64,000 bases of DNA from NCBI RefSeq assembly GCF_003991155.1, contig NZ_CP031293.1; one strand, written 5' to 3'. The translations under genes were made by a program, and so were the position numbers. Shown here in pieces: positions 58,813-61,704 of this stretch. This DNA comes from Escherichia coli. GTDB taxonomy: Bacteria; Pseudomonadota; Gammaproteobacteria; Enterobacterales; Enterobacteriaceae. The notes beneath the pieces are model-generated. The model was not told where the DNA came from, ran no database searches, and was given only the letters and a program-made list of their open reading frames with translations. Within the stretch, counting starts at the first letter, position 1. The number at the start of each line of letters is the position of its first letter.

Positions 58813-59970
58813 TTAATTATTCTCCATTTGTTTTGCAACATCCATAATGTGGTAAAGCGGTACTCTGTTCTTAGCTAACTCCACCATGGCGTTCATATAA
58901 GGTACCATGGTTGAAAAAAGGATTTTATAACCTTCGCAAAAATAGGAAACAGTCTCATTGTTTACTTTAGTAATACGATGCTTAGGGCAACCACCATTGC
59001 AGATAGGTTTATATGCACATTGCTGACATTTCGCTGAAATCCGTTTTTTTTGCGCTGTCAGTTGAACACTGTTCATCGTTTTGAGTTCAGATTTATTAAT
59101 GTTTCCAATTTTGTACTGTGGATAGACAAAATGATCGCATTCGTAAATATCTCCATTACTTTCAACAACCAGATTATCCTTGCAGGATTCCTGGAAAATA
59201 CAACTGGTATGCCCATTCCCCAAAAAACGGCTGACAAAGCTTTCAAACTGACGGATGAAAATTTCACCCACATCGTTTTTAACCCATTGCATAAAAATGG
59301 TCGACATAAACTTGCCATAAGCCGTAGGAGGCACAGAAAAATCAATGATACGGAATGTGTTCTCACTATGACCACTGAAATCAATATTCGGCGTCCCGGT
59401 TTCGAGCAATTCGATAAATTGCATATGTTTACTGCCGATAGATTTTAAAAAATGATAAACCTCAAGAGGGTAATGGACATTAACGTTATTAATGACGGTT
59501 AACGTATTAAACTCTACTTGATATGATTTCAGACGCTCGATGGCTGCTATCACTTTTGCAAAAGTACCGTTACCTGAATTACTGCGTCTGTAACGGTCAT
59601 GTAGCTCCTGGGGTCCATCGATCGAGATACCAACCAGAAACTCATGTTCTTTGAGAAAGGCACACCATTCATTATTCAATAAAATGCCATTCGTTTGTAA
59701 TGCATTAAAAATACGTTTTTGACCTGCATAGCGTTGTTGATAGTGAATAACTTTACGGAAAAAATCCAGGCCAGCCAGAGTGGGTTCACCGCCTTGCCAG
59801 GTAAAATAGACCTGATTGCCAGACGCTGCGATATATTGTTTGATGAACTCTTTCAGAGTGCTGTCATCCATCCATTTTTCATGAGTAAACTGCGACTCTT
59901 TTTCAAGGTAAAAACAGTAATCACATTTGAGATTACATTGAAAACTGGAGGGCTTGGCTGTAACGTGCAT
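58813..59970 (-). CDS. ydeM: radical-SAM anaerobic sulfatase-maturating enzyme homolog
   Basis: Track ORF trimmed to ATG 59968-59970 ([21 protein letters not shown]..., 385 aa) with CxxxCxxC radical-SAM motif. Confidence 0.85.
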
Positions 59971-60021
59971 CGCTATCTCGCTCAATAAGGCGGCGGAAAA
60001 ATCCGCCGCATGAAGGTTTAG

Positions 60022-61704
60022 TTATTTCGCTTCGCTTAGTGCTTTCTTGATATTGTTAAACTTCTCCTGATTTACCTCGCTAAGCGGTGGCTGGCTGTTG
60101 TCGATAAACTCTCTTACCACGCCTTGCATCTCTTTAACGACCTGCGGATTGGCGGCGGCAATGTTATCTTTTTGCTGTAGATCCGTCAGTTTGTATAGAC
60201 CTAACTGATTGTTTTCTACTGTATAGACAAGCGAATAATCGTTATTTCTCACCGTATAAGAGAATTGGCTTAAGTCCTCGGTGTTGGGGTTATGCGGGTA
60301 ATCGTCTGACTGATGGCGGACAAATTTGTGGTAATTATCCCAGAAGGGAATATTTTCTTCATCAAACCAGTGAGAATAAGAGGTTATCCAGGTCAGATTT
60401 TTATGTGGCTCGCCTTGTTTCTTATCTTGCAACCACGGCAGCAAGGAAACGCCATCCAGCTTAAGGTCTTTTGGAATGCTGATATCGGCTGCATCAAGAG
60501 CTGTCGGGTAGAAATCCATTGCGGAAATCAGCTTGTCATAATTACCGGGTTGAAGTTTTCCTTTCCACCACATAAACATTGGGGTGTGAGTACCGCCAGG
60601 ATAGGTCTGACTCTTATAGCCTTTTTGCGCCCCGTTCAGCGGCAGAGGACCATCGATAACCGCACCATTATCGGAGGTAAAGAGAATAATAGTATTGTCA
60701 TACTGTCCGTTTTTCTTCAGTTGTTCGAGAATGCGTTTTACACCCTGATCAACAGAATAAACGGAAGCGTAGTAGTTATCTGCTGTTTGACTACCGGTAT
60801 TAAATTGCTTCTGATATTGCTCCGGTGCAGGATTATCATTTGGCAGGTGCGGAGCATTATAAGCCAGGTAAAGCATAAAAGGCTGGTCAAGTGTTTTGGC
60901 ACGATCAACAACGCCAATTGCCTCATCGGTTAACTGATCGCTGATATAACCTTTTGCGGGGACGCGTTCACGGTTTTTGAACAGTGAAGGGGAGTTGTAA
61001 TATGCCGTTCCTGCAGCGTGGAATCCCATAAAGTAATCAAAGCCACGGTTTTGAGGTTGCCATTCTTCCGCAGAAAATGTGGTGAAGTTGTCATGATAGT
61101 CACGCGTTTGTTTATCTTCCGGTACCGGCACATTACTGATTTTTGACAAGTGCCATTTACCTACTGCTGCAGTGTAATAACCATGATTCTGGAATAATTC
61201 AGGCAAGAAAGTTTCTGTTAGCGGAATACCATCCTGAGCATCGGTATTGGAATAGACACCAAAGCGGGCGGGCGCTCGACCGGTCATTATTGCGGCGCGG
61301 GAGGGGCCGGAAACACCGTGCGCCACATAGCCGTTAGTAAAACGTACGCCTTCATCCATTAATGAAAGGAGCGTCGGCGTTGATTTTTGCGCAGCTTCAA
61401 TGGCTTTATCTATCCCTATTTTGTAGGTATCGACAACTTCACGATTTTCCATTGTTTTTGGGTCAAAAGATCCCTTATCAAAAGGAAGTTGTCCATAACC
61501 AAGATCATCCATGGTCAGTACGATAATATTTGGCTTTCCTTTGGTACTGTATTCAGTCGGCGTAAAGTCTGAGAAAGCAACGTTTGTTTTGGTTGCTTTC
61601 AGCTTTACATCATCTGCCGCATGAGCAGCAAATGCAGCCATACCAGATGCCAGTATCAAAGATATCGAGGTACTTACGACACTTTTCTTTAATGCAGACT
61701 TCAT
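60022..61704 (-). CDS. ydeN: sulfatase (arylsulfatase family), secreted
   Basis: Track ORF trimmed to ATG 61702-61704 (MKSALKKSVVSTSISLILASGMAAFAAHA signal peptide, 560 aa). Confidence 0.85.
   Translation of the reverse strand: MKSALKKSVVSTSISLILASGMAAFAAHAADDVKLKATKTNVAFSDFTPTEYSTKGKPNIIVLTMDDLGYGQLPFDKGSFDPKTMENREVVDTYKIGIDKAIEAAQKSTPTLLSLMDEGVRFTNGYVAHGVSGPSRAAIMTGRAPARFGVYSNTDAQDGIPLTETFLPELFQNHGYYTAAVGKWHLSKISNVPVPEDKQTRDYHDNFTTFSAEEWQPQNRGFDYFMGFHAAGTAYYNSPSLFKNRERVPAKGYISDQLTDEAIGVVDRAKTLDQPFMLYLAYNAPHLPNDNPAPEQYQKQFNTGSQTADNYYASVYSVDQGVKRILEQLKKNGQYDNTIILFTSDNGAVIDGPLPLNGAQKGYKSQTYPGGTHTPMFMWWKGKLQPGNYDKLISAMDFYPTALDAADISIPKDLKLDGVSLLPWLQDKKQGEPHKNLTWITSYSHWFDEENIPFWDNYHKFVRHQSDDYPHNPNTEDLSQFSYTVRNNDYSLVYTVENNQLGLYKLTDLQQKDNIAAANPQVVKEMQGVVREFIDNSQPPLSEVNQEKFNNIKKALSEAK

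Follow-up and report, generated by a model that had tools for sequence, protein, structure and literature searches.

The ydeN-ydeM operon of Escherichia coli pairs a predicted Ser-type sulfatase with its probable radical-SAM maturase

The 64,000-nucleotide stretch of E. coli DNA analyzed here (the window; contig NZ_CP031293.1) is 100% identical to the chromosome of E. coli 2016C-3878, and the same genes carry PGAP annotation in the identical record NZ_CP029747.1. The initial annotation placed a sulfatase and its maturase at 58813-61704. Both open reading frames were found there, with matches to the sulfatase profile PF00884 and the maturase profile TIGR03942, and comprise the following genes and protein features.

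58813..59970, minus strand: ydeM, an ORF with an ATG start encoding a 385-amino acid cytoplasmic radical-SAM/SPASM anSME.
58936..59202, minus strand: SPASM region of YdeM, containing Cys 257, 263, 278, 315, 318, 324, 328, and 345; D279 adjoins C278.
59914..59937, minus strand: radical-SAM cluster motif C12-x3-C16-x2-C19 of YdeM, aligned with CNLKCTYC of anSMEcpe.
60022..61704, minus strand: ydeN, an ORF encoding a 560-amino acid predicted periplasmic Ser-type S1 sulfatase, so named in the identical record.
61279..61311, minus strand: formylglycine signature S132-G-P-S-R136-A-A-I-M-T141-G142 of YdeN, a regular-expression match; the peptide of the formylglycine-conversion region reads …YVAHGVSGPSRAAIMTGR….
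61618..61704, minus strand: predicted Sec-type signal peptide (YdeN residues 1-29), read from the sequence as MKSALKKSVVSTSISLILASGMAAFAAHA and followed by ADD.

ydeN and ydeM lie on the same strand with a gap of 51 nt and form a two-gene operon that is already annotated in E. coli and is not new; the literature already treats it as encoding a sulfatase and an anaerobic maturase. The operon is flanked by ydeO upstream and yddA downstream, and these flanks are identical to those of K-12. Differences from K-12 ydeN (b1498) and ydeM (b1497), which are the same genes, amount to strain-level polymorphism only (98.5% nucleotide identity; 3 of 560 residues in YdeN and 1 of 385 in YdeM). A longer ydeN, initiated by TTG and spanning 60022..61884, was rejected in favor of the ATG at 61704, because a canonical signal peptide, the preceding AAGAGGA, and the PGAP and K-12 annotations agree on the latter. 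For ydeM, a second possible start is a TTG at 59985.

YdeN matches Pfam Sulfatase over the full length of the profile (residues 58-408; E=1.3e-70). The C/S-x-P-x-R motif, on whose presence the initial annotation had staked its proposal, occurs as S132-G-P-S-R136 within a Ser-type version of the sulfatase signature (C/S)-x-(P/A)-x-R-x4-T-G. Ser132, the predicted target of formylglycine modification, occupies the alignment position of the catalytic residue of ZgCgsA (Cys in 9hh3, Ser in 9hh2), and YdeN contains zero cysteines. Among 17 YdeN orthologs (70-84% identity), S132, G133, P134, S135, and R136 show no variation. YdeN also has the metal-binding and catalytic set D66, D67, K183, H185, H286, D345, N346, and K364. 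All catalytic residues are invariant in the 17 orthologs and are kept in 61-63 of 64 distant relatives; D66, D67, R136, H185, D345, and K364 do not vary across 66 relatives. The signal peptide comprises a Lys-rich n-region, a hydrophobic core, and A-H-A ahead of the predicted cleavage site, and reading its sequence revealed neither a twin-arginine motif nor a lipobox Cys. YdeN is given as periplasmic in a previous report (PMC10746267).

An AlphaFold (AF2) model of YdeN built from 66 diverse sequences reached a pLDDT of 92.2, with low confidence in residues 1-43; a model built from the 17 close orthologs (pLDDT 51.5) was discarded. The fold neighbors of YdeN are sulfatases, and the model lies closest to those of SulfAtlas subfamily S1_19. 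The carrageenan sulfatases of this subfamily, ZgCgsA (9HH2/9HH3) and the Pseudoalteromonas enzymes (6B0J/6BIA/6PSM), are the top matches of YdeN both in sequence (E ~1e-51) and in fold (E ~1e-35; TM 0.80-0.82, target-normalized). They act on D-galactose 4-O-sulfate and are Cys-type, unlike YdeN, which is Ser-type. Identity is 26-28% in structural alignments and ~40% over the catalytic core as read from a sequence alignment; YdeN contains an additional segment (residues 76-108) and is ~100 amino acids longer. The next closest solved relatives belong to S1_16. The orthologs of YdeN group tightly in a clade of their own, and the nearest relatives outside it are at most 45% identical.

YdeM contains Pfam Radical_SAM and SPASM domains and scores 504.9 bits against NCBIfam TIGR03942, "anaerobic sulfatase maturase" (cut-off 349.45), covering profile positions 1-362 of 363. 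The CxxxCxxC motif ascribed to it earlier corresponds to C12, C16, and C19. Clostridium perfringens anSMEcpe (PDB 4K36-4K39) aligns with residues 4-359 of YdeM at moderate identity (E=4.9e-63 for 4k36), and the two enzymes share the CX3CX2C motif, all eight Cys of the auxiliary clusters, and the Asp that follows the third of them. Each of the eight SPASM Cys in YdeM pairs with a Cys of anSMEcpe, and D279 is aligned as well; by this correspondence, the eight Cys are predicted to serve two auxiliary [4Fe-4S] clusters. They show no variation in the partner proteins of Aeromonas and Anaerobiospirillum, and all 11 cluster Cys together with D279, which align with anSMEcpe, are conserved in the partners from other genera. 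As is characteristic of an anSME, YdeM is encoded beside a sulfatase gene whose product contains the target motif. The natural substrate of anSMEcpe is a Cys-type sulfatase.

These features make it very probable that YdeM forms formylglycine at Ser132 of YdeN in the cytoplasm and that YdeN, once exported, hydrolyzes a sulfate ester. YdeN would be synthesized as a preprotein bearing its Sec signal peptide. YdeM, using a SAM-binding [4Fe-4S] cluster and two auxiliary ones, would oxidize the Ser132 side chain in the SGPSRAAIMTG segment of still-unfolded YdeN to C-alpha-formylglycine. The modified protein would then be exported to the periplasm and hydrolyze a sulfate ester there, through an active site composed of hydrated formylglycine and a divalent metal held by D66/D67/D345/N346, with K183/H185/H286/K364. 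We infer both the modification of Ser132 itself and the identity of YdeM, rather than AslB, as its agent. By description, the pair is likened to AtsA/AtsB of Klebsiella pneumoniae, in which a Ser-type periplasmic S1 sulfatase is encoded beside an iron-sulfur enzyme of the anSME family. That system is the mechanistic model, with Ser converted to formylglycine in the cytoplasm and export afterwards; maturation of YdeN before export is proposed by analogy with it. The Klebsiella gene order is atsB then atsA, the reverse of ydeN-ydeM, and AtsA is an arylsulfatase of an S1 subfamily other than that of YdeN.

The initial annotation had assigned the pair to formylglycine generation under anaerobiosis. 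The assignment is supported, but it need not be confined to anaerobic conditions. To our knowledge, the oxygen-dependent FGE acts on Cys only. Because YdeN is Ser-type and Cys-free, an anSME is its only known route to formylglycine at any oxygen level.

The ydeNM pair is present in 5323 of 5426 complete E. coli genomes (98%) and is thus core in the species. Purifying selection on the two genes is strong, with dN/dS values against K-12 of 0.058 for ydeN and 0.016 for ydeM. In Aeromonas veronii, Anaerobiospirillum, Yersinia pestis, and Salmonella enterica, too, the sulfatase gene precedes the radical-SAM gene. Outside E. coli, ydeNM-like pairs have unrelated neighbors, IS elements, or an ICE-like island around them. 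The pairing recurs in five genera and five unrelated contexts. These comparisons suggest that the pair moves between genomes as a module. The neighborhoods of YdeN orthologs gave no consistent clue to the substrate; a porin gene lies upstream in two cases. As the result of a genome scan, ydeNM is correct but ordinary and matters little, since its genes carry annotation, occur in nearly every E. coli genome, and have been treated in earlier papers.

Three candidate RNA elements accompany the two genes.

58731..58762, minus strand: terminator-like hairpin downstream of ydeM, a 12-bp stem followed by UUUCGUCUU (-18 to -20 kcal/mol, z=-3.4).
59990..60009, minus strand: GC-rich hairpin GCGGCGGA-UUUU-UCCGCCGC in the spacer from the ydeN stop to the ydeM start (centroid fold -17 kcal/mol, z=-2.7).
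62036..62058, minus strand: terminator-like hairpin after ydeO, called by the terminator scan, which sets ydeO apart from the ydeN promoter region (61705..62035).

None of 200 shuffles folded as well as the hairpin downstream of ydeM, a position at which the consensus terminator scan made no call. The spacer between ydeN and ydeM is the same in K-12, and the corresponding spacers in Yersinia, Salmonella, and Aeromonas also hold a hairpin, of different sequence. The Shine-Dalgarno sequence of ydeM is weak. A sigma-70 promoter scan of 58400..62300 returned 8 sites versus 11.8 expected, and we claim no promoter. A search for the AraC half-site TAGCN7TCCATA, allowing at most 2 mismatches, gave 42 matches versus 46 expected; none of these matches lies upstream of ydeN, and the search did not locate the published AraC site. 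Across the whole window, Rfam models matched the fdnG SECIS only and nothing near ydeNM. According to published work, AraC and GadX bind upstream of ydeN, and ydeN and ydeM are co-transcribed, targeted by AraC, repressed by GadX, and expressed. ydeN has been reported as translated and regulated, and ydeM as up-regulated in an araC mutant in the mouse gut.

Among the alternatives, the one that survives best, improbable as we judge it, holds that ydeNM is intact yet effectively cryptic, with too little YdeM made or active and YdeN mostly unmodified and inactive. The literature we found reports neither sulfatase activity nor a substrate for YdeN, offers no biochemical proof that YdeN carries formylglycine or that YdeM is active, and calls YdeN a "putative sulfatase" up to 2024. 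E. coli K-12 is said to fail to mature heterologous Ser-type sulfatases, and the weak Shine-Dalgarno sequence and the hairpin ahead of ydeM fit the same reading. It is opposed by the strong purifying selection on both genes, by retention of the pair in nearly all E. coli genomes and across genera, and by the published translation and regulation of ydeN and the rise of ydeM in the araC mutant. Benjdia et al. reportedly described, in FEBS Lett in 2007, a Ser-type sulfatase variant that was not matured by aerobically grown E. coli K-12. Klebsiella AtsA produced in E. coli requires co-expression of AtsB. In light of these two results, native YdeM may be poorly expressed, limited by oxygen, or specific for YdeN.

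It is less probable still that adjacency does not reflect an enzyme and its substrate, with YdeM maturing a RiPP-like peptide through its SPASM domain, or AslB or an unidentified third system maturing YdeN. Many radical-SAM/SPASM peptide-maturase models do match YdeM (DynA, for example, at 218 bits), but all score far under their cut-offs, and only that of TIGR03942 is passed. The small ORF yneP, a conceivable peptide gene adjoining ydeM, is convergent to it rather than co-oriented, and the recurrence of sulfatase and radical-SAM gene in five unrelated contexts argues for partnership. The third maturation system is known to act on Cys-type sulfatases, and YdeN lacks Cys. Least probable of all is that YdeN is a formylglycine-dependent phosphate- or phosphonate-ester hydrolase or an alkaline-phosphatase-superfamily transferase: the PGAP name is only "sulfatase-like hydrolase/transferase," Pfam Phosphodiest and NCBIfam PehA match weakly, and zero NCBIfam sulfatase equivalog cut-offs are reached, but PehA, at 67 bits, falls far below its cut-off of 900, the top neighbors by sequence and fold are all carbohydrate sulfatases, and the complete sulfatase catalytic set is conserved.

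The window contains a second sulfatase gene.

6492..8468, minus strand: ORF for an MBL-fold alkyl/aryl-sulfatase (SulfAtlas S3, SdsA1/YjcS-type) of 658 amino acids with a signal peptide, identified by its domains.

Its earlier designation as an MBL-type alkyl-sulfatase is borne out by Lactamase_B, Alkyl_sulf_dimr, and SCP2-like Alkyl_sulf_C domains and by HxHxDH at residue 176, the same three-domain architecture and motif as in SdsA1, YjcS, and PSdsA. Matches to solved enzymes score 1185 bits for 7tl5, 1038 for PSdsA (4nur), 707 for YjcS (4pdx), and 625 for SdsA1 (2cfu), all with E<=1e-186. MBL-fold alkyl-sulfatases use a binuclear zinc mechanism and need neither formylglycine nor a maturase. 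One formylglycine-like string occurs at residues 509-519 and is not kept in 7tl5. SdsA1 and PSdsA have been placed in the S3 family (PMC5066984). The gene is a distinct paralog of yjcS, which itself lies elsewhere, in two places in the record; it is paired with a MASE5-GGDEF gene. Present in 439 of 5426 E. coli genomes (8%), it is an accessory gene outside the ydeNM system. The proposal that the segment encodes two independent routes to sulfate-ester hydrolysis is literally true but describes no biological link; we rejected a functional connection because ~50 kb and some 45 unrelated genes separate the two loci and because one is core and the other accessory.

For YdeN matured by YdeM, the best lead to a substrate is a 4-O-sulfate carried by galactose or GalNAc in a glycan of the host or the diet, as the Gal-4-sulfate sulfatases of S1_19 are closest to YdeN in sequence and modeled fold, followed by S1_16. 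The low identity to these enzymes and the isolated clade of YdeN speak against this lead. The literature suggests a GlcNAc-6-sulfatase role; our comparisons point to Gal/GalNAc-4-sulfate rather than GlcNAc-6-sulfate. One may speculate, with considerable doubt, that ydeNM is a self-contained, horizontally mobile cassette for Gal/GalNAc 4-O-desulfation in the gut, in which the hairpin sets the ratio of sulfatase to maturase. If so, its hosts would be the gut facultative anaerobes E. coli, Yersinia, Salmonella, Aeromonas, and Anaerobiospirillum, and the conserved intercistronic hairpin would yield a high sulfatase-to-maturase expression ratio. Its targets would be host mucin or chondroitin-type glycans, unlike those of the published GlcNAc-6-sulfatase suggestion. 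Desulfation of host glycans by E. coli bears on gut colonization.

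The ydeN and ydeM genes, which encode a predicted periplasmic sulfatase and a radical-SAM/SPASM protein, lie in tandem with a gap of 51 nt. Gene names were taken from RefSeq record NZ_CP029747.1 (Escherichia coli 2016C-3878 chromosome), which is 100% identical over 58600..62000 and 5300..8600 by megablast and whose plus strand corresponds to the minus strand of the window. The annotated order is ydeP-safA-ydeO-ydeN-ydeM-yddA-yddB-pqqL-gadBC … narU-narZ…-nhoA-yddH-pptA-(alkyl/aryl-sulfatase)-(GGDEF)-yncG-ansP-yncE-pqqU. The pair is an already known, annotated operon that is nearly universal in E. 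coli. The initial annotation had placed it at 58813-61704; these coordinates proved exact, and both family assignments were borne out by Pfam, that of YdeM also by NCBIfam.

Features of the ydeNM locus, the alkyl-sulfatase gene, and comparison loci (the last in their own coordinates)
58813..59970, minus strand: ydeM, 385 aa
60022..61704, minus strand: ydeN, 560 aa
59990..60009, minus strand: GC-rich hairpin in the ydeN-ydeM spacer, from RNA folding; identical in K-12
58731..58762: 12-bp hairpin with a U-rich tract, 3' of ydeM, from folding
62036..62058: terminator-like hairpin after ydeO, from a terminator scan
6492..8468, minus strand: metallo-β-lactamase (MBL)-type alkyl/aryl-sulfatase; Lactamase_B, Alkyl_sulf_dimr, and Alkyl_sulf_C (Pfam), HxHxDH at residue 176
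L010:7680-7706, L011:7696-7719, and L004:6696-6719: spacer hairpins outside the window

YdeN matches the Pfam Sulfatase profile over its whole length (E=1.3e-70). The formylglycine motif, named beforehand as the feature to check, is present as a complete signature (S132-G-P-S-R136-A-A-I-M-T-G). YdeN is unambiguously Ser-type, since the entire sequence contains no cysteine. Residues S132, G133, P134, S135, and R136 are invariant across 17 YdeN orthologs (70-84% identity; Leminorella, Salmonella, Citrobacter, Yersinia, Proteus, Shewanella, Aeromonas, Iodobacter, and Anaerobiospirillum), as are the metal and catalytic residues D66, D67, K183, H185, H286, D345, N346, and K364. Among 64 more distantly related single-domain proteins, of which 55 are Cys-type and eight Ser-type, 61-63 also keep the catalytic residues. 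The ortholog clade is tight and isolated, with mutual identities of at least 70% and next relatives at 45% or less. The N-terminus (MKSALKKS…AAFAAHA/ADD) reads as a predicted Sec signal peptide that lacks a lipobox or twin arginine, and YdeN has been given as periplasmic (PMC10746267). The AlphaFold model is of high confidence (pLDDT 92.2, pTM 0.89), with low confidence confined to residues 1-43. Directly after the signal peptide, residues 35-59 (window ~61528..61602, minus strand; KLKATKTNVAFSDFTPTEYSTKGKPN) are almost invariant in orthologs, A37, T38, T40-F44, D46, and Y52 being fully so; this stretch is missing from more distant relatives and modeled with low confidence.

YdeM matches Radical_SAM and SPASM in Pfam and scores 504.9 bits against the NCBIfam equivalog TIGR03942 (anaerobic sulfatase maturase), above the curated cut-off of 349.45; the NCBIfam models of peptide-maturase radical-SAM/SPASM proteins all fell far under their own cut-offs. 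The expected CxxxCxxC motif was found right at the N-terminus (C12-x3-C16-x2-C19) of a protein without a signal peptide. YdeM aligns over residues 4-359 with anSMEcpe (4k36; E=4.9e-63), the anaerobic sulfatase-maturating enzyme (anSME) of Clostridium perfringens. All remaining conserved cysteines (C257, C263, C278, C315, C318, C324, C328, and C345) lie opposite an anSMEcpe cysteine, and D279 lies opposite the aspartate that follows the third auxiliary cysteine. By the anSMEcpe structure, we take these eight cysteines and D279 to be the ligands of two auxiliary [4Fe-4S] clusters and the catalytic base.

Conserved gene order, partner orthology, retention, and low dN/dS are evidence that YdeN and YdeM work together. 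The sulfatase precedes a radical-SAM gene in Aeromonas veronii, Anaerobiospirillum, Yersinia pestis, and Salmonella enterica; the spacer is 57-59 nt long, except in Anaerobiospirillum, where it is 222 nt. These radical-SAM genes encode YdeM orthologs (64%, 52%, 66%, and 68% identity, respectively) in which all cluster cysteines are conserved. Surrounding genes are otherwise unrelated: IS elements flank the Aeromonas pair, and the Salmonella pair adjoins integrase, TraI, and UvrD genes and sits in an ICE-like island. The pair occurs in 5323 of 5426 complete E. coli genomes. Compared with a K-12 derivative, YdeN differs at three residues and YdeM at one, giving dN/dS values of 0.058 and 0.016 from a single pair with small counts.

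In the most likely scheme, cytoplasmic YdeM would bind the unfolded YdeN precursor, and its 5'-deoxyadenosyl radical would abstract the C-beta hydrogen of Ser132, which would be oxidized to formylglycine. Sec would then export YdeN, whose formylglycine hydrate, aided by a bound divalent metal, would attack the sulfate ester. To our knowledge, the oxygen-dependent formylglycine-generating (FGE-type) enzymes accept only cysteine as target, so Ser-type YdeN would need its maturase at any oxygen level. This refines the initial annotation, which spoke of formylglycine generation under anaerobiosis. It is very improbable that the pair is cryptic or poorly active in E. coli; we retain this idea mainly because Benjdia et al. 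(FEBS Lett 2007), using aslB and ydeM deletion mutants, reportedly found that aerobic E. coli matured Cys-type, not Ser-type, sulfatases, independently of either gene. AslB and YdeM are the two putative anSMEs of E. coli, and a third, unidentified system has been suspected (PMC8379841).

A second YdeN paralog, 565 aa long, 77% identical to YdeN and likewise Ser-type (SGPSRAAILTA), occurs in about 2% of E. coli genomes (112-114 of 5426; 14 places on plasmids). At L008:6001-7698 and L012:10302-11999 (E. coli A12, NZ_CP028762.1), its gene follows a porin gene within an island rich in IS elements. No maturase gene was found within the 9 kb annotated on each side; the paralog would depend on YdeM or AslB in trans.

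Owing to the terminator-like hairpin after ydeO, ydeN has a separate upstream region of ~330 nt. A GC-rich hairpin lies between ydeN and ydeM in E. coli, Yersinia, Salmonella, and Aeromonas; its position recurs in all four, its sequence is not conserved, and z-scores in the latter three are modest (-1.5 to -3.6). This element might tune relative sulfatase and maturase expression; by inference, it could set the sulfatase-to-maturase ratio or stabilize the ydeN message. Convergent with ydeM is a small ORF (58719..58847, plus strand; 41-42 aa), YneP in K-12 and a "hypothetical protein" in NZ_CP029747.1, that overlaps the final 35 nt of ydeM and covers the post-ydeM hairpin on the opposite strand. 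It begins MKTKH… rather than MTKH… as in K-12 and has two internal residue differences.

The ORF at 6492..8468 is, judged by its domains, a genuine S3/MBL-type enzyme. Its Pfam domain set and that of YdeN are disjoint, in line with the claim that the two are mechanistically unrelated. The further claim of two independent routes to sulfate-ester hydrolysis holds as a catalogue statement without functional meaning: ~50 kb and roughly 45 unrelated genes separate the loci. Overall, the initial observation is confirmed and its interpretation supported. The product of the ORF at 6492..8468 matches the solved alkyl-sulfatases 7tl5 (1185 bits), YjcS (4pdx; 707 bits), PSdsA (4nur), and SdsA1 (2cfu), and is nearer to 7tl5 and PSdsA than to YjcS. 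The gene is not yjcS, with which it cross-matches over only 181 nt at ~71% identity; this genome carries yjcS elsewhere, giving two places in the record. Together with a MASE5-GGDEF diguanylate cyclase gene, the alkyl-sulfatase gene forms an accessory two-gene insert (5348..8468, minus strand) between yncG and pptA; full-length copies occur in 439 of 5426 complete E. coli genomes (~8%). Residues 509-519 (SGPWRNFYLTG) fit the formylglycine pattern S-x-P-x-R-x4-T-G. This looks like a chance match because the close homolog 7tl5 has AGTWRNFYLTG there; scans that rely on the motif alone would be misled by it.

Elsewhere, an IS621 (IS110-family) transposase gene (10831..11811, plus strand; DEDD_Tnp_IS110 and Transposase_20) lies between yddE and nhoA. 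IS621 is known for bridge-RNA-guided recombination; an Rfam scan reported no RNA family at this gene. The sole Rfam gathering-level match across the window is a SECIS element (RF01989, 84.3 bits; 27188..27246, plus strand) ~580 nt into fdnG (26606..29653, plus strand), which agrees with the selenocysteine of formate dehydrogenase-N.

According to published work, ydeM and ydeN are co-transcribed and ydeN is a direct AraC target (PMC10878103), with AraC bound upstream only with arabinose (PMC3738151). Expression of ydeN is repressed by GadX (PMC4918353) and strongly down-regulated at pH 4.4 (PMC10746267); the sulfonated dye Red 40 induces ydeN and no other gene (PMC10653809). The authors who reported the co-transcription call the YdeN substrate unreported and speculate on mucin GlcNAc-6-sulfate from 33% similarity to BT4656 (PMC10878103).

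By sequence, the solved structures nearest to YdeN are the S1_19 carrageenan sulfatases 9hh2/9hh3, 6bia, and 6b0j (E about 1e-51); BT4656 (5g2v) gives E=2.7e-30. Foldseek with the YdeN model yields the same order: S1_19 first (TM 0.80-0.82 on target), S1_16 next, and BT4656 at rank 44. S1_19 enzymes target galactose 4-O-sulfate. They have been described as 4S-carrageenan sulfatases (PMC5066984). P0122 (43% identity, Cys-type), the nearest relative that is not an ortholog, is encoded in a cluster (L013:3252-10248) alongside another sulfatase, a KdgM-type porin, an anSME, a BcGHD-domain protein, and SIS, GatZ/KbaZ, aldolase, and PfkB genes resembling a GalNAc/tagatose pathway; this may be a utilization locus for sulfated amino sugars or glycosaminoglycans. 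Because S1_19 is nearest in sequence and fold and the P0122 cluster has this content, YdeN may act on a Gal/GalNAc-sulfate rather than GlcNAc-6-sulfate, a suggestion we offer only as a lead.
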